Source: a virus
Taxonomy: Duplodnaviria > Caudoviricetes
Strand: one strand, 5' to 3'
Virus record (IMG/VR): IMGVR_UViG_3300044693_000261
Span: 1-64,000 of that record
DNA length: 64,000 bases
Part shown: one piece after another, positions 5,928 to 58,790 of the stretch
How the letters are laid out: every line of letters starts with the position of its first letter
Numbering within the stretch: the first letter of the stretch is position 1
Made by a program: the position numbers and the translations under genes
Notes under the pieces: model-generated
Seen by the model: only the letters and a program-made list of their open reading frames with translations
The model's database searches: none
What the model was told of the DNA's origin: nothing

Positions 5928-5983
5928 GGTCACACCCTCCTTTGCCGGAACACCGCAAGCATAGCCAGCGCAATGCCGGCGGT

Positions 5984-7904: not shown

Positions 7905-8452
7905 ACGGTGCCGAAGTGGGCGTTGACGCGGCCGGCGGCCTCCTCGGCGCGCTGCCGCGCCTGCTCCTCGGCGTCAGCGGCGTGCCGCATGCCCTCGCGG
8001 ATCAGCTTCTCGGCGAACTCGATCTGGCGGGGGCTCATCTCGCCCTTGTGCAGCAGGTCCAGGGCGAGGCTGCCGAGGGTGCCGGAGTAGTCGGGCAGGT
8101 AGGTCAGCTCGGCCAGCAACGGGTGCGCGTCGACCAGGGCGGCGATCTTGCCGGGCAGGGCGGCCAGCTTGGCGGCCTCGCGGCGCTCGCGGCGGGCTTC
8201 GCGCAGCTCGCGCTCGTGGTCGCGCTTGGCGATCTGCTCGTGGGTCATCCACGCGCCGCCGCTCGCGCCGGTGGCGGTGCGGCAGCCCCAACACCAGCTG
8301 TAGTCGAGCAGCGAGGGGTAGTGGGCGGTGCCGTTGCACTTCCAGCAGGGCACCCAGACGTGCTCGACGCCGCCGATCATGCGGGTCTCGCCGGCCTCGT
8401 GGATCTTGACGAACAGCTCTGCCGGGACTCCGTTGATCGTGTGCTGGACCAT
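7667..8452 (-). CDS. hypothetical protein with an N-terminal CxxC zinc finger and a C-terminal OB-fold-like region
   Basis: CWKCNGT...CWGC; C-terminal HFGTVGERLE...KWTAS...GTVKEH..RDGECQTVLTRC; full promoter motif upstream. Confidence 0.7.
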   Translation of the reverse strand: MVQHTINGVPAELFVKIHEAGETRMIGGVEHVWVPCWKCNGTAHYPSLLDYSWCWGCRTATGASGGAWMTHEQIAKRDHERELREARRERREAAKLAALPGKIAALVDAHPLLAELTYLPDYSGTLGSLALDLLHKGEMSPRQIEFAEKLIREGMRHAADAEEQARQRAEEAAGRVNAHFGTVGERLEVTGTVRVQWEIDGDYGVRTLLVIDTERGTVKWTASRCFPELRGTVISLRGTVKEHATRDGECQTVLTRCTVRD

Positions 8453-8577
8453 GGCGCTGACTCCCTCTCGCGTGCGGAACACCACAAGCATAACCAGCGC
8501 CGAGAGCTTGGGTCAACGACTACTTTCCGTCACTGTCTCAGGACACCCCCACCTCGTTCGACCCGCCTCGAACATGA

Positions 8578-8674
8578 GACAGCCGTGAGACAGCCAGAAA
8601 GCCTATTACGCGCGCGCGTACGCGTACACACGCACGCCTGCGCATAGGCTGCCCTGCGCTGTCTCACGGCTGTC
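8578..8674. repeat. 17-bp perfect inverted repeat around a 31-nt alternating purine/pyrimidine tract, directly downstream of traB (candidate clt or origin-like site)
   Basis: GACAGCCGTGAGACAGC 8578-8594 and GCTGTCTCACGGCTGTC 8658-8674; inner AGCCTAT/ATAGGCT; alternating tract 8607-8637. Confidence 0.7.
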
Positions 8675-29393: not shown

Positions 29394-29861
29394 TCAGGCG
29401 TACGTGTAGGCGTTGCTGGCCGTGACGTTCGCGGCGTCGTCCGCGATGACCACGTTGACCGCGCCGGCCGACTTGGCTGGCGTCACGCACGTGATCGTGG
29501 AGTCGTCGACGACCTTGACCTGGGTGGCGGCCGTGCCGCCGAAGGTCACGCCGGTGACGCCGGCGAAGTTCGTGCCCTTGATCACGACCGGCGTGCCGCC
29601 GGCGGTGGTGCCGGTGGCCGGCGTGATCGAGGTGAACGTGGCCGTCGGGTACAGGGCGTCGATCGTGGCCTGCGGCACGATCTCGCCCGTGTGGAACAGG
29701 ATGCGCCGAGCGTCCTCGAAGTGACCGCCCGAGTCCTGGTGCGTGTAGTCCTGGTAAACGGTCGCGTTGACCGTGACCATGGCCGGCGGCGTGACCGAGG
29801 AGGTCAGCGCCTGGAGCGCGGTCTTGGTCAGGACGTTGCCGCTGCTGTCCCTGATGGTCAT
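29394..29861 (-). CDS. IPT/TIG (Ig-like) domain protein, probable virion decoration
   Basis: SITPATGTTAGGTPVVIKGTNF...VTFGG...ITCVTPA..AGAVNVVI......AYTY. Confidence 0.85.
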   Translation of the reverse strand: MTIRDSSGNVLTKTALQALTSSVTPPAMVTVNATVYQDYTHQDSGGHFEDARRILFHTGEIVPQATIDALYPTATFTSITPATGTTAGGTPVVIKGTNFAGVTGVTFGGTAATQVKVVDDSTITCVTPAKSAGAVNVVIADDAANVTASNAYTYA

Positions 29862-30050
29862 GCCGTGAGCCTTCCTGTGCGTGACGCGTCGCCGGCCAGT
29901 ATCGGCCCATCGGCACAGGTGGCGGGCGCGACAGGCCGATCACCGGCGGCGGACATGCAACGGCCCCGATACCTGCGCCGAGGTGTCGGGGCCGTTGGTC
30001 CTGCTCGCGATCATGCAACGCACCGCGTCAAGGTGCGTGTCTCACGGTAG

Positions 30051-30146
30051 CTATTTGGCGGGCTTGCGTCCACAGGCCGGCGCGGTCCAGCCACAGCCGC
30101 AGTCGCACAGCTGGCCAGCCGAGGCCGGCGGAGTGCTGGTGTCCAC
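30051..30146 (-). CDS. 31-aa Cys-rich peptide
   Basis: GAGGAG RBS, GTG start, MDTSTPPASAGQLCDCGCGWTAPACGRKPAK. Confidence 0.45.
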   Translation of the reverse strand: MDTSTPPASAGQLCDCGCGWTAPACGRKPAK

Positions 30147-30178
30147 GTGGTGTCTCCTCTCAACGGTCCGGACATGCG

Positions 30179-30215
30179 ACAGGGCCCGTCCGGTGCTCAG
30201 CCGGGCGGGCCCTGT
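30179..30215 (-). terminator. hairpin closing the tRNA-mimic operon
   Basis: acagggcccgtccgg...ccgggcgggccctgt. Confidence 0.6.
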
Positions 30216-30241
30216 CTGGTGATCTCGTCAGCATGAGATCG

Positions 30242-30332
30242 TGGCCACGGTGGGACTCGAACCACACACCTCCGGGTCCAACGGCCGAACCGCTGATCAA
30301 ACCCGATGCGCTGCCATTTACGCTACGCGGCC
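30242..30332 (-). ncRNA. tRNA-like RNA 5 (91 nt) with an expanded anticodon arm
   Basis: GGCCGCG/CGTGGCC acceptor, TA-GCGT..GCGC D arm, GGTTCGAGTCC T arm with a bulged stem, 25-nt anticodon loop containing an extra hairpin. Confidence 0.75.
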
Positions 30333-30344
30333 GTTCCGGTAATG

Positions 30345-30503
30345 CTACTTGGAACGCAAGCCGCCCGTGTTCCACTTCCCGTGGAACTCCTTCGATCGGT
30401 CGGCGATCTCCCGAGCCTTCGGGTTGCCGGTGATCTTGCCGACCTTCTCGGCCAGCTCGGCCGCGTCAGTGGTCAGCTCCTGCTTCGACCCCTGCTGTGT
30501 CAC
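30345..30503 (-). CDS. 52-aa protein embedded in the RNA operon
   Basis: GGAGGGAGG RBS, GTG start, MTQQGSKQELTTDAAELAEKVGKITGNPKAREIADRSKEFHGKWNTGGLRSK. Confidence 0.65.
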   Translation of the reverse strand: MTQQGSKQELTTDAAELAEKVGKITGNPKAREIADRSKEFHGKWNTGGLRSK

Positions 30504-30719
30504 GTGCCCTCCCTCCAGAACAGGCCGTGACCGGCGGAAGCGACACCGGAGAATAGAAGGCCATTCGCGCCCAGCCAGCCCGGCGCGCTCCCCGGTGTTC
30601 TCCTGCGGCTGTCCACGCGCCGCCGGTCACGGTGTTGGCGCGGGGGCAGTCGGACCTTTGCCCGCGCCGGGGACAGCCTCTGTTCGCCCGGTAGTGCTCG
30701 GGCCTAGTCCGACGGCGTC

Positions 30720-30811
30720 GTGCGCTGGCCGGAGTCGAACCGGCGACCTCGGATCCCGCCCGCTCACTGCTCCGGGCATCGTCCACGCTCTGTCCACTGA
30801 GCTACAGCGCG
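30720..30811 (-). ncRNA. tRNA-like RNA 4 (92 nt) with an expanded anticodon arm and a C1-A72 mismatch
   Basis: GCGCTG/CAGCGC acceptor, TAGCTCAGTGGACAGAGC D arm, AGGTC variable loop, GCCGG-TTCGACT-CCGGC T arm. Confidence 0.78.
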
Positions 30812-31405
30812 CCGGTCGGGACGGTCAAGGCCAACCGGGTCGTGCTCGGGCCCTGGCTTGCCGCAGCGTCCTGCGATCCCGTCGCCCGTCGTGCACCGAT
30901 GCCGCTACCACACGGCGATCGGTCTATCTCACTTCACCGATCGCCGCCACCAGCAGCGATCGGCCTATCTCACCGTTCCGCCCAGTGCATGGCCATGCCT
31001 GCCGCTAACAGGCGTGTCCGGGCGTATTCCGCTCACTTGCGTGTTCCCGTGCTCCACAGCGGACCGCGAATACCCGTAGGTACCTGTCCCTGTTATCAGC
31101 TTTCCATCCCGTGGAGCGCCCGACCTAGGCAGGCCGATCGGTCGGGGTGTTCCTGAACTCAAGCGGAGTGCACTCCGCCCTGCCGTTCGCGCCCTGGTCG
31201 GCGATGAAACCGGCCAGGGCTGGCAACGTCGGCCGCCAAGTCGCCGTCGCCACTCCACATTCTCGACGCCCGGCGTGGATGACCGGGTGGAAACGACTCG
31301 GCCTGCAAGCGAGCCGCCGCCATCGCCCTCGGCTGAAGGCATCCCGCAGGCTGTGGCACCGGTGCGGGCCCGGCGCTCGGGACGAAGGAGAACGTCCCTG
31401 CCACG
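30812..31405 (-). ncRNA. candidate ~590-nt structured RNA between tRNA mimics
   Basis: No credible ORF; long-range pairing CGATCGGCCT/AGGCCGATCG; duplicated GTGAGATAG(A/G)CCGATCGC; several hairpins. Confidence 0.5.
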
Positions 31406-31503
31406 CAGCGCTGCCCGGACTCGAACCGGGGCACGGGGGCTTCCGCCGAACGCGGCGCGGAGTTACCCGGCCGCCACCGCTCTGCCAACTGAGCTACAGC
31501 GCC
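31406..31503 (-). ncRNA. tRNA-like RNA 3 (98 nt) with an expanded anticodon arm
   Basis: GGCGCTG/CAGCGCT acceptor, TAGCTCAGTTGGCAGAGC D arm, CCCGG-TTCGAGT-CCGGG T arm, 32-nt structured loop. Confidence 0.78.
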
Positions 31504-31789
31504 CCCCACTTTCGCGACACCGGCAGGGGATCCGGTTGCCTGCTGCCTGCCGCCGATAAGGAGTCCAATCACCGACAGGCTGCGTCGCTACGGGCCGTCT
31601 GGCTCCAGCGCTGGCGCGCCGGCCGTCCGTCATGCCCTTGTCCGTTCACCATGGTCGTACAGCCGGCGGTCCAGGCAGTGGACCAGACTGCCGCCAGCCA
31701 TCGCATCGGGCCCTAGCACGTTCGGGCCCGCGCTTCGGTCGCACCGAGTTGCCCCGCCAGAGGCTTCTCGTGTGGCGTGCACCGCGTCG

Positions 31790-31889
31790 AACACCAGGCG
31801 GGAGTCGAACCCGCGACCTCCCATGCAACCCGCCGGCCAATTGGCGGGTCCGGCCGTAGGGCGCTCGTAACCGGCTGAGCTACTGGTGT
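31790..31889 (-). ncRNA. tRNA-like RNA 2 (100 nt) with an expanded anticodon arm
   Basis: ACACCAG/CTGGTGT acceptor, TAGCTCAGCCGGTTACGAGC D arm, AGGTC, GCGGG-TTCGACT-CCCGC T arm, extra 8-bp helix GACCCGCC/GGCGGGTT. Confidence 0.78.
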
Positions 31890-31984
31890 CCCGCCCCACT
31901 TGCTGCGAACCGGTAGGGGCCACCGGATATTGCACTAGCACCCATCCAGGCTGCTCGGCCACAGGAGAGCGAACCGAGCACCCG

Positions 31985-32064
31985 TCCCCCGCCCAGGACT
32001 CGAACCTGGGTTCTCCCTGCCGTTCGCTGCTCGGCAGGGCGCGGTACCCATCCGCCACGGGGTG
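31985..32064 (-). ncRNA. tRNA-like RNA 1 (~80 nt) with an 8-bp anticodon stem, 9-nt loop and 6-bp T stem
   Basis: CCCCG/CGGGG acceptor, GCGG/CCGC D stem, CCCTGCCG/CGGCAGGG, CCCAGG-TTCGAGT-CCTGGG. Confidence 0.7.
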
Positions 32065-32255
32065 GCAGCCCGGCCGCACGTGACCGAACTACCCAAACCA
32101 AGGCTTCACCGTCGCGAAGGGACTTACGGCCAGCGTGGGCGGCAAGTTGTACGCAACGTCGTGCGTGCCTTGCGCTCGGTGGCAGTGTGACCCGCCGCCG
32201 AGCCGTTGCCTCGGATGCCCACACCGACGTTTCGAGGCTATCCCTCGGGGGCGGT

Positions 32256-32312
32256 GTTCCGGCCGAGAACATCGGGGGGAAGCTCTCGACCGGAACGGCT
32301 CAAGCTTAGCCG
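32256..32312 (-). promoter_or_regulatory. promoter of the RNA operon (GGCTAAGCT-N6-GTTCCG) and 15-bp 5' hairpin
   Basis: Same motif as the protein-gene promoters but with no RBS or ORF downstream. Confidence 0.7.
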
Positions 32313-32365
32313 GTGAGGCCACGCGACGCAACGCCCATTTACCTGCGAAAACGTCGCCCAGCTGG

Positions 32366-32671
32366 TCAGTGGGCGGCCTCGACCCATCGCCCCGGTGCCG
32401 CCGGCTGACCAGCGGCCGCGTCCCGGTCCTGGCTACGCGAGGTGACCCACAGGATGTCGTTGCCGTCGAGGAACACCTGCCCGTTGACCGCGCTCTCCGG
32501 CGTGTCGCCCCACGGGCGCGTGATCAGCATCGGATAGGTCTGCCCCTCCTCGGCGTAGTTGCCGCCCAGCACGCCGTTCGACGCCTTGCGCCGGCCGTCG
32601 ATCGCCTTGGCGTCGAAGTCCGCCAGCGTGTAGTCCACCCACAAGCCCCGCCGAGGCGCGATGTGACTCAT
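32366..32671 (-). CDS. conserved-type phage hypothetical protein
   Basis: YPMLITRPW...VNGQVFLDGNDILWVTS; ATGA overlap. Confidence 0.7.
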   Translation of the reverse strand: MSHIAPRRGLWVDYTLADFDAKAIDGRRKASNGVLGGNYAEEGQTYPMLITRPWGDTPESAVNGQVFLDGNDILWVTSRSQDRDAAAGQPAAPGRWVEAAH

Positions 32672-33255
32672 GCCTGCCCATCCTCTCGTTCCGCCTGCTC
32701 GCGCGCCGCGAGCAGTGCCGCCTGTAGCTGACGTCGCACCGTCGGGTCGTTGAAGTCCAGACCCATCGCCTCGGCGAAGCGCCGCAGCGCCGACACCAGC
32801 ACAGAGCCCTGCCGGGCGATCGCCTCGACCGCGCGGCGCTCCAGCCCCAGCCGCGCGCCCTGCACGATCAGCCGCTCCAGCGTCTTGCGTTCGTCCATCT
32901 CCAGCTTGACCAGCGCCGTGATCTGCTCGCCCGACTCGACCAGCTCGCCGGTGTGCTGGTCGACCAGGTAGGTGGTGCGGCTCAGCGCCTTGTCGCCGAC
33001 CTCGGCGTAGGCGGCGGCCAGCTGCGCGCCATACAGCTGGGCCCGCTCGGCCGCCACGCTGATCAGACGCGCGTACAGCTCGGCCACGTTCGGCGGCGGC
33101 CCCACCTCGGCCAGCGTCGCCAGCTCATCACGCTGCGCCTGCCGCGACACGGTTGGCGCGTTGCGGGCCGCCAGCACAGCCCTGCGGTCCTCGGCGCGCT
33201 CCGCCGAAGCCTGGCGCACCGACTCGGCGTAGTTGGCCCGCAGATCGTCGCTCAC
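32668..33255 (-). CDS. putative terminase small subunit (actinophage type)
   Basis: ALVKLEMDERKTLERL...ARLGLERRAVE...QG..LV.ALRR....GL helical pattern; next to the inverted-repeat region. Confidence 0.55.
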   Translation of the reverse strand: MSDDLRANYAESVRQASAERAEDRRAVLAARNAPTVSRQAQRDELATLAEVGPPPNVAELYARLISVAAERAQLYGAQLAAAYAEVGDKALSRTTYLVDQHTGELVESGEQITALVKLEMDERKTLERLIVQGARLGLERRAVEAIARQGSVLVSALRRFAEAMGLDFNDPTVRRQLQAALLAAREQAEREDGQA

Positions 33256-33260
33256 CCTGG

Positions 33261-33608
33261 TCAGGGTATGGCGTGAGCCTCCCGAAGCACGGCAGCCATG
33301 CGGCCCGGCTTCAGCCACTCGCCCGTTTCCGGCGCGCCGACCTCGCCGCCGTTCTCCACGTACGCGCCCAGCATGTCCACGCACATCGCGCGGTAGGCGG
33401 CGACCAGCATCTGCCCCGGAGAGCGGCGCGCCGACCCGGATTCCTCGACCTCGCCAGGCGTCGACCAGAGGTAGCCGTCCAGCTCTCGGCGCGGGCTCAA
33501 CTGCTGGCGGGTGCGTTCGCGAAACCAGGCGGCCATACCGCTCGTGGTCCATGGGTACTGGTCAGCGCCGGGAATGCGGCGCGCTACCATGTCCGACATC
33601 GAATCCAT
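33261..33608 (-). CDS. hypothetical protein
   Basis: GAGGG RBS; first gene left of the divergence point. Confidence 0.55.
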   Translation of the reverse strand: MDSMSDMVARRIPGADQYPWTTSGMAAWFRERTRQQLSPRRELDGYLWSTPGEVEESGSARRSPGQMLVAAYRAMCVDMLGAYVENGGEVGAPETGEWLKPGRMAAVLREAHAIP

Positions 33609-33802
33609 CCCTCACGTTGGGTTCGGTCGTCGCCCCGGAGCCTGGCCGCTCGCGGGGCTTTCTCGTGGTCATCCTACGCGGGGTCGGCACGGTAAGGGCC
33701 GTCAGGGCGCGCGGTAGACCAATCCCCGACAACGGGTAGTTGCCGCAGGGCAAGCATCTCCCTCTACTTCATAGGCTTTCTTTCGATGGTCTAGCTCTCT
33801 CA

Positions 33803-33999
33803 ACAAGGTCTATTCGAAACCGCGCGCCAACAAGTTGTGTAATGCAACCATACCTATACCCCCTGTCATCGGTACTAGACCCTCGCCGTAAAGGGTATAT
33901 GGCTTCCACCCGATCACCTTCGAGGGTGTAGCGACCCATGATTACTATACATGGTTGCATTATACAACCTGTTCGCGCGTACTTTCGAATAGACCTTGT
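33803..33999. repeat. AT-rich ~49-bp imperfect inverted repeat with a ~99-bp spacer (candidate origin or packaging site)
   Basis: ACAAGGTCTATTCGAAA 33803-33819 matches 33983-33999 exactly; AACAAGTTGTGTAATGCAACCAT 33829-33851 matches 33951-33973 with 2 mismatches. Confidence 0.8.
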
Positions 34000-34272
34000 C
34001 GCCGCGATACCCCATGGTTTTGGTCCTGTCTCCGGGTGCTAGTGCTTCACGGCTGTCCGATACCAGCCGGCTTGACACGCTACCTCCTTCCACGGAAGGA
34101 TCGCAGGTGTTCCGGCATGCTAGATCTTCCGAGAGAAGGGTGATCTTTACGCTGAGTGATGAACACACCTCACCCCCCTGAAAAAACCTCCCGGTAGTAT
34201 AGGAGTCGAAACACTGTTATGAAACGCAGTCATGATCAACTAACCACGCTGCCGTCACGGACTGTGCACAAC

Positions 34273-58650: not shown

Positions 58651-58790
58651 GACACCGGCTATGCTTGGGTCGTTCCGGCAATAACTACAGCTTCCGCCGG
58701 TGCCGGGGTGTTTCGGCGCTGCCTCCTCCCGATGAGGCAGCGCCTCGTGTCCCCCGACACCGGCGGTTCCCACGTTCAGGGAGGTCAACG

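Follow-up and report, generated by a model that had tools for sequence, protein, structure and literature searches.

The window analysed here, a stretch of 64,000 nucleotides (nt), corresponds to the first 64 kb of a 103,348-base-pair (bp) IMG/VR virus record (IMGVR_UViG_3300044693_000261) that is rated 91% complete. Its minus strand carries, from position 32308 down to 30179, an operon made up of a promoter, approximately 1.85 kb devoid of coding signal, an open reading frame (ORF) of 52 amino acids (aa) and a terminal hairpin, and in which five tRNA-shaped elements, named E1 to E5 in transcript order, are embedded. The record has a G+C content of 70% and encodes a tail sheath, an HK97-type capsid protein, a terminase, a portal protein and WhiB; on the basis of this gene content, of the high G+C and of the likeness of the capsid protein to those of Brevibacterium and Gordonia phages (approximately 46% identity), the source phage is read as an actinophage-like myovirus, that is, one that infects a high-GC actinobacterium. 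Relatives that carry the locus were reached through the 195-aa protein encoded upstream of it, and the comparison of the locus therefore involves three distinct genomes: the window itself; L056, a 103,926-bp contig from a Joint Genome Institute (JGI) soil metagenome that is approximately 94% identical over the locus; and L053, from a Logan assembly, whose nucleotide identity over the locus is approximately 75%. A 294-aa reading of the upstream ORF, which matched no viral locus, was discarded, as this stretch really holds two genes.

The operon, which is read as an early one, starts at the promoter motif TAAGCT-N6-GTTCCG (32291-32308), which is identical in both relatives. A preliminary description of this DNA, made from the sequence alone, had recognized a conserved promoter in the hexamer GTTCCG at 32291-32296, and this hexamer is indeed part of a motif, TAnnnT-N6-GTTCCG, that occurs in 22 copies on the two strands of the window versus 0.1 expected by chance; further sites lie, for example, at 365-382, 5946-5963 and 58660-58677. 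At the other end of the operon, a GC-rich hairpin that lacks a U tract (30179-30215) is a candidate terminator, being kept in both relatives with changes that preserve its stem; a consensus terminator scan, which needs a run of T, gives no call at this hairpin. Frame plots of the G+C content at third codon positions (GC3) display strong coding signal on both flanks of the locus and none between approximately 30510 and 32360. The proposal that some 2.1 kb are mostly non-coding thus applies to the latter region, but not to the segment between E4 and E5, which consists mainly of the gene for the 52-aa protein (30345-30503, minus strand). The GC3 of this ORF is 0.90, as compared to approximately 0.7 around it, it is preceded by a GGAGG-type ribosome-binding site, and it has a homologue in L053 (39% identity over 28 aa, E 4e-6).

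The five elements were found within 1 nt of the positions that had been assigned to them, and an acceptor stem, a D arm and a T arm with a GTTCRANYC loop are present in all five. Reading of the sequence also agrees with the preliminary description on the presence of U8, of 4-bp D stems and of GG in the D loops, on the absence of an encoded CCA end, on the terminal hairpin, on the lengths of the rebuilt arms that occupy the place of the anticodon arm (25, 42, approximately 42, 36 and 35 nt for E1 to E5), and on those of the leader and the successive spacers (227, 94, 286, approximately 593 and 387 nt). The statement that every element has a pairing acceptor stem has to be softened for two of them, in which the top of this stem holds one or two mismatches: the acceptor stem of E1 has only five or six clean pairs, adjoining a 6-bp T stem, and that of E4 holds a C1.A72 mismatch. 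ARAGORN called E1, E3, E4 and E5, each with an implausible anticodon arm (in one case with a 4-base ‘anticodon’), and detected E2 in intron mode only; in intron mode it proposes introns in E2, E3 and E5. When the elements were compared to the Rfam tRNA model (RF00005, gathering threshold 29 bits), E5 (49.5 bits) and E3 (38.8 bits) both passed, and the E3 of L053 reached 51.5 bits, while E2 scored only 21.5 bits, to tRNA-Sec, and E1 and E4 gave no match. A comparison to the Rfam models of known structured RNAs had been suggested; YrlA, tmRNA, GOLLD and ROOL gave no match at threshold (tmRNA being absent by both the ARAGORN tmRNA mode and the Rfam models, and GOLLD and ROOL giving no match even at E <= 10 in 29800-32700). 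A perfect 5-bp T stem closing a TTCRANY loop occurs at four sites in the entire 103-kb genome, all of them at this locus, and E5 adds a T arm with an identical loop, whose stem contains a single bulged U; no tRNA-like gene was detected elsewhere in the 103-kb record by ARAGORN, Rfam or a T-arm scan.

The rebuilt arms differ markedly in their construction. E1 (31984-32064, minus strand, as are all features of the operon), called by ARAGORN, has an arm of 8 bp closed by a 9-nt loop that measures 11 nt in L053 and whose sequence is not conserved. In E2 (31790-31889), which displays a perfect 7-bp acceptor as well as D and T arms, the 42-nt arm is composed of a 3-bp outer stem, an internal loop and an inner hairpin that is retained in L053, albeit with 5 bp and a GCAA loop versus 7 bp and an 8-nt loop in the window. 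E3 (31405-31503) carries a long arm capped by a U(A/G)AC tetraloop and followed by a variable region of approximately 17 nt. The body of E4 (30719-30812) is paralogous to that of E3, agreeing with it at 22 of 25 positions of the 5' half and at 20 of 24 of the 3' half, yet its 36-nt arm is unrelated to the E3 arm. Finally, E5 (30241-30332), the best conserved of the five, bears a 35-nt arm that consists of 7 bp, a UGAU bulge, 6 bp and a 5-nt loop. The motif CAG(C/U)G is contained in E1, E4 and E5; the AGCAG likeness of the E1 and E4 loops was given no weight, the E1 copy not being conserved in L053. In E1, E2, E3 and E5 the discriminator base is followed by C-G (CGG, CGA, CGU and CGA, respectively), as it also is in L053 and in the element that replaces E4 in L056, and in E4 the base at this position depends on the register chosen; this dinucleotide may be a 3'-processing signal.

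None of these arms is suited to decoding. A 5-bp stem with a 7-nt loop that holds U33 and R37, placed immediately after position 26, is found in none of the 11 copies of the elements from the three genomes. The assertion that the anticodon arm has been rebuilt in all five elements holds in the sense that no arm is canonical at the tRNA position; it needs amending for E5, whose distal hairpin would formally qualify, its stem being of 5 bp and its 7-nt loop including U33 and R37. This only formal match is, however, displaced by 7 additional bp and a 4-nt bulge, and its triplet is UCG in one relative and CGC in another. The five elements are unable to read codons, and the locus is laid out like a phage tRNA region in which every tRNA is codon-blind. 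Phage tRNA genes are commonly accounted for by the supply of codons or by evasion of anticodon nucleases; in a genome with five tRNA bodies and no working tRNA, translation cannot be the purpose.

The structures have been kept by selection. One structure was written per element and compared between the window and L053 for E1, E2, E3 and E5. In E1, 18 pairs are kept, four have changed in a compensatory manner (two in the D stem, two in the extended arm), none has changed on one side only, and one terminal pair is broken. In E2, 22 are kept, with one one-sided change, one compensatory change in the outer arm stem (C-G to G-C in L053) and no broken pair; in E3, 24 are kept, with three one-sided changes, no compensatory one and a single broken pair (U.U in the window, U-A in L053); and in E5, 27 are kept, with one one-sided change, one compensatory change in the distal hairpin (C-G to U-A) and none broken. 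The four elements together thus hold six compensatory pairs and five one-sided changes, several of them within the rebuilt arms, and, in raw counts, 21 of 210 paired columns differ from L053 as compared to 45 of 155 unpaired ones. The sparing of paired columns, along with compensatory changes in both D stems and arms, yields a pattern unlike that of decaying pseudogenes. Conservation is also uneven along the locus, identity to L053 being 91% for E5, 86% for E3 and for the core of the spacer between E2 and E3, 82% for the last 60 nt of the leader, 81% for an RNA that follows E4, 76% for E2 and 72% for E1, while the two small ORFs reach 48-60% at the nucleotide level and the E1-E2 and E3-E4 spacers are largely replaced or deleted. 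The tests therefore support the view, already put forward in the preliminary description, that these are selected, non-decoding tRNA-shaped RNAs rather than decayed tRNAs: covariation involves D stems and arms alike, changes are biased toward unpaired columns, and no canonical loop is present in any of the 11 copies.

Whole modules, moreover, are exchanged between closely related phages. L056 is otherwise 93-100% identical to the window, and two of its elements differ: its E3 is a 72-nt form with a 5-bp stem capped by a GAAG tetraloop, and in place of E4 it carries an unrelated element of 137 nt, whose acceptor stem is different and whose arm, of approximately 80 nt, is branched. E4 is absent from L053. 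Taken together with the common body of E3 and E4, the replacements in L056 indicate that the body is the constant part of the module and the arm its variable part. That arms are exchanged between phages with 94% identity over the locus suggests that selection acts fast, perhaps in connection with host defence.

The sequences that lie between the bodies are of several kinds, and the suggestion that the elements punctuate long structured RNAs holds for some of them only. The spacer between E2 and E3 (31504-31789) is a structured RNA whose core is 86% identical to that of L053, and RNAalifold identified five pairs changed on both sides, three of which belong to a hairpin at 31703-31733 with the invariant loop GAACGUGCUA; beside it lies a hairpin of approximately 100 nt that is almost invariant. 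As this spacer covaries and is flanked by bodies on both sides in all three genomes, it fits a piece that would be released by tRNA-type cuts. A second structured RNA, of approximately 70 nt (30646-30716), follows E4 upstream of the small ORF, and has two compensatory pairs in an 8-bp helix. Compensatory changes therefore bear out the proposal for these two RNAs, but not for the E1-E2, E3-E4 and E4-E5 segments. The E3-E4 spacer (30813-31404, approximately 592 nt), in which two 41-nt tandem repeat hairpins are located at 30894-30973, is poorly conserved, with 56% identity to L053 over the half that aligns and the rest mostly deleted; it was rejected as a large conserved non-coding RNA, having a folding z-score of only -2.3 and being mostly missing in L053. 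The 227-nt leader (32065-32290) is conserved mainly over its last 60 nt or so (32065-32125), being 82% identical to L053 in this 3' part and 68% as a whole, with large insertions upstream in L053. In L053, the place of the 94-nt spacer that separates E1 from E2 in the window is taken by a 54-aa ORF with a ribosome-binding site (8451-8615).

The locus is missing from more distant relatives. Five genomes with approximately 60% capsid identity (G001-G005) have no such locus, and hold a single ordinary tRNA, elsewhere, among all five. In two genomes with distant homologues of the 195-aa protein (L054, L055), protein genes lie downstream of it and no T-arm motif is found there, and two others (L057, L058) have no such locus as judged from called genes only. 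Relatives with normal tRNAs at this position had been named as evidence that would speak against mimics, and none was found among those examined. By blastn, the 2.3-kb locus has no counterpart in 50,697 phage records, and the arms and spacers have none in approximately 120 IMG/VR loci, where only T-arm and D-arm words match; two conserved spacer 20-22-mers yielded nothing in IMG/VR, and four chance matches of 20-25 nt in metagenome contigs.

RNase P and RNase Z recognize the stack of acceptor and T stems and the elbow of tRNAs, and not the anticodon arm. The parts retained in E1 to E5 are those that are read by RNase P, RNase Z and the CCA-adding enzyme, and from this we infer a mechanism, to which we give an even chance of being correct, in which the host tRNA maturation enzymes would cut the transcript at the bodies, liberating both the tRNA-shaped RNAs and the pieces in between. 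Host RNase P would cut the 5' end of every body, and the 3' end would be finished by RNase Z or by 3' exonucleases, before the CCA-adding enzyme acts. A primary transcript of approximately 2.1 kb would thereby give rise to stable tRNA-shaped RNAs of 80-100 nt with lineage-variable arms, and the remaining pieces would comprise at least two conserved structured RNAs and the mRNA of the small ORF; transcription, cleavage, addition of CCA and any action of the released RNAs are all predictions. That the enzymes would be those of the host is suggested by a Pfam scan of 129 ORFs called by GC3 (genes for proteins of 322, 882 and 2,272 aa were left out), which revealed no splicing endonuclease, RtcB-type ligase, CCA enzyme or Ro60; a 2H-phosphoesterase domain, DpdA and Acb2 are present among the scanned ORFs. 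Several observations weigh against this mechanism. A bare processing signal would not need long arms that are kept by compensatory changes, and the arms are thus probably functional themselves; the imperfect acceptors of E1 and E4, elements which also stay below the Rfam tRNA threshold, make their cleavage less certain; L053 keeps the RNA after E4 although E4 is absent, such that not every conserved spacer needs a body on its 5' side; and, as the locus occurs in only three distinct genomes, covariation counts are small. In view of both the covariation and the rapid exchange of the arms, punctuation and arm function may hold together. As selection keeps them in shape, the elements most probably represent either tRNA mimics or modules for processing.

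Small ORFs are often interspersed in phage tRNA clusters, and the layout of the locus, the weakened acceptor stems of E1 and E4 and the dispensability of E4 in L053 could all be seen as traces of such a cluster that is decaying and has lost its function. This is very improbable, however, considering that substitutions avoid paired columns and are compensatory where present, aberrant arms included, that E5 and E3 are better conserved than the neighbouring ORFs, that the same arm is altered in all five elements while the elbows are intact, and that no relative has a normal tRNA at the locus. We hold just as little belief in the possibility that the elements are true tRNA genes with short introns or protective inserts, to be removed by a host or phage activity. 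E5, in which an 18-nt hairpin is preceded by UUUGA and followed by GA, could yield a 7-nt loop through one excision, ARAGORN proposes introns in three of the elements, and other phage tRNA-bodied genes in IMG/VR hold inserts beside an intact anticodon loop. Yet no single excision restores a standard stem-loop in E1, E2, E3 or E4, or across all homologues, as had been foreseen in the preliminary description; the loops differ between relatives, both in E1 and in the distal triplet of E5; the loop of E3 in L056 has only 4 nt; and the E5 product would be a tRNA-Ser(UGA), although E5 has no long variable arm and carries A73. The inserts, which exceed a normal arm by 8-25 nt, are too short for group I introns, and protein splicing of the bulge-helix-bulge type, a motif for which no formal search was performed, is not supported. 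Among the scanned ORFs none codes for a splicing endonuclease or an RtcB-type ligase, even if a 2H-phosphoesterase domain is present, and the splicing of inserts of this size is not known from bacteria.

A tentative alternative, less probable than processing by host enzymes but more so than introns or decay, is that the tRNA-shaped RNAs are themselves the effectors, acting as mimics that would bind up or lead astray some host protein with affinity for tRNA bodies. Such a protein might be a nuclease that targets tRNAs as part of a defence or toxin-antitoxin system, an enzyme of tRNA modification or CCA addition, or, as in the case of Y RNAs, a ring protein of the Ro60/Rsr type. The rebuilt arm would in that case either resist cleavage or offer a handle for docking; as the RNAs would still be processed in the manner of tRNAs, this proposal overlaps with the favoured one, from which it differs in that the spacers would be secondary. 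Arms that are compensatorily kept and nonetheless swapped between near-identical phages are what an arms race would be expected to produce, although the minimal tetraloop hairpin of E3 in L056 is hard to see as a handle. Elements with tRNA bodies and oversized arms number at least 99 in IMG/VR, and the T arm and acceptor of E5 match a permuted, YrlA-like element of Gordonia phages (96.6% over 29 nt); of 185,579 species genomes, only three contain a 23-mer of this match, and none of the three belongs to an actinobacterium, so that a host tRNA shared with these representative genomes is no explanation for it. Set against this, no partner protein was identified. TROVE/Ro60 (PF05731) is absent from the 103-kb record, from Gordonia phage Fryberger and from ten other records, 12 having been tested in all; the motif GNCGAAN0-1G has no copy in the elements, is at chance level overall, and on the RNA strand occurs only within coding sequence; and the scores that the Rfam YrlA model reaches in the window, which it owes to the T and D arms, are 19-20 bits versus a cut-off of 69 bits.

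Several known systems come close to the operon. With canonical phage tRNAs (RF00005) the elements share the acceptor, D and T arms, scores above threshold in the case of E3 and E5, and a cluster with small ORFs; unlike them, E1 to E5 and their homologues have no anticodon stem-loop at the decoding position. RNAs C and D of phage T4 (species 1 and 2) are small stable RNAs of unknown function, encoded in the T4 tRNA gene cluster, co-transcribed with it and subjected to tRNA-like processing. They are comparable by analogy only; in T4 they lie beside eight working tRNAs, whereas none is working here. YrlA (RF02553), which is found in actinobacteria and mycobacteriophages, is likewise non-decoding, with a tRNA-like D/T elbow and an acceptor stem, and the tRNA-like YrlA of M. 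smegmatis undergoes cleavage by RNase P and addition of CCA (Chen et al. 2014, PMC4201824). In all five of the elements described here, nevertheless, the acceptor is open and the lower arm closed, while the acceptor of YrlA is closed by a loop and its ends form the helix that binds Ro60. Engineered tRNA scaffolds in which the anticodon arm is replaced by a cargo RNA are processed and stable in bacteria (PMC3753655), and in these scaffolds, as in tRNA-gRNA arrays and MALAT1-mascRNA (PMC11693755), a tRNA body provides RNase P/Z processing, stability and the ends of neighbouring RNAs; the scaffolds and arrays are artificial, however, and MALAT1-mascRNA is eukaryotic, whereas the operon of the window is natural, belongs to a phage and holds five modules. 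No description of natural phage tRNA bodies with grafted arms was found in Rfam 15 or in searchable papers, the nearest published cases being YrlA, T4 RNAs C and D, mascRNA and a 2026 preprint on other bacterial tRNA mimics.

Elements of related construction are present in other viruses. A scan of IMG/VR for tRNA D and T arms located 46-76 nt apart recovered at least 119 loci, at least 99 of which have a paired acceptor stem. Three groups can be told apart among these: tRNA-Tyr genes that contain introns of eukaryotic type and in part lie on contigs of giant viruses; a large group, located within big tRNA arrays of phages, in which a hairpin and ACAGCAA adjoin an intact anticodon loop; and many others, including high-GC elements built like E1 to E5. 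In the second group, genes of 110-125 nt with tRNA bodies (at IMG/VR loci L064, L066, L071, L091, L160, L166, L179 and others) carry an insert of approximately 40 nt, made up of a hairpin and then ACAGCAA, that splits the 5' strand of the anticodon stem, and Rfam recognizes them as tRNAs with a long insertion. They resemble E1 to E5 in having a tRNA body with 40-50 additional nt in the lower arm and in residing in phage tRNA regions, but they differ in that their anticodon loop is intact, while there is none in E1 to E5; their likeness to the CAGYG motif is short and, for E1, involves a copy that is not found in L053.

The last 29 nt of E5 relate it to a further set of elements, through the 96.6% match to unannotated elements in Gordonia phages Fryberger, Ronaldo and relatives. 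These are circularly permuted, in the order T arm, closed acceptor hairpin and D arm, which is the layout of YrlA, and an element nearby matches YrlA weakly, at 31 bits. In Fryberger (MH479913), three unannotated tRNA-like elements (2358-2428, 2484-2572 and 2626-2766 of locus L182) lie upstream of the annotated tRNA-Asn and tRNA-Leu; one of them is a 64-nt mini form that consists of acceptor and T arm only, and two are circularly permuted and YrlA-like. In sister phages of Fryberger the tRNA-like region is annotated as a hypothetical protein. Two of the three species genomes that contain the 23-mer common to E5 and the Gordonia phages hold it in tRNA-bodied genes with an ACAGCG insert, and the third copy is incomplete. 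Two genes in alphaproteobacterial metagenome-assembled genomes (L184 4382-4474 and L185 3161-3251) are tRNA-Thr-like and 91-93 nt long; in these genes the anticodon stem is preceded by a GUCGAACAGCG insert and the ACCA end is encoded, and they have in common with E5 the 23-nt T arm and acceptor.

These findings also allow a broader proposal, which we consider possible but doubtful, in which the tRNA body would be a general, swappable chassis and the grafted arms lineage-specific payloads, be they decoys, handles or antisense loops. Whatever arm replaces the anticodon arm would be transcribed, excised by host tRNA enzymes, stabilized and swapped by recombination; the operon of the window would be an array composed entirely of payloads, and would form a large undescribed class together with the ACAGCAA-insert RNAs and the permuted Gordonia elements. 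If the bodies do serve as processing and stability modules or as mimics, annotation pipelines would be miscalling or missing a whole class of phage RNAs, and the tRNA-scaffold trick devised by engineers would already be in use in nature. For one type of body there is a cultured relative, in the Gordonia phages of the genus Ronaldovirus, and the elements are short and easily synthesized, which makes the question directly testable.

A few other features of the record deserve mention. Between 58.8 and 103 kb, Pfam identifies DpdA (7-deazaguanine DNA modification), an Acb2/Tad1 hairpin-domain protein and a 2'-5' RNA ligase/2H-phosphoesterase, and a 631-aa protein has a PHROGs RNA-ligase match at its N terminus as well as matches to head maturation proteases. 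An intergenic region of approximately 650 bp (33560-34220), with a G+C content of only about 52%, is located between divergent gene blocks where the GC skew changes sign, and may be an origin or control region. Directly past the terminal hairpin of the operon lies a small Cys-rich ORF (30011-30175, minus strand) with a shorter homologue in L053, and the stretch that comes next (29862-29950), upstream of a TIG-domain gene, is 94% conserved.

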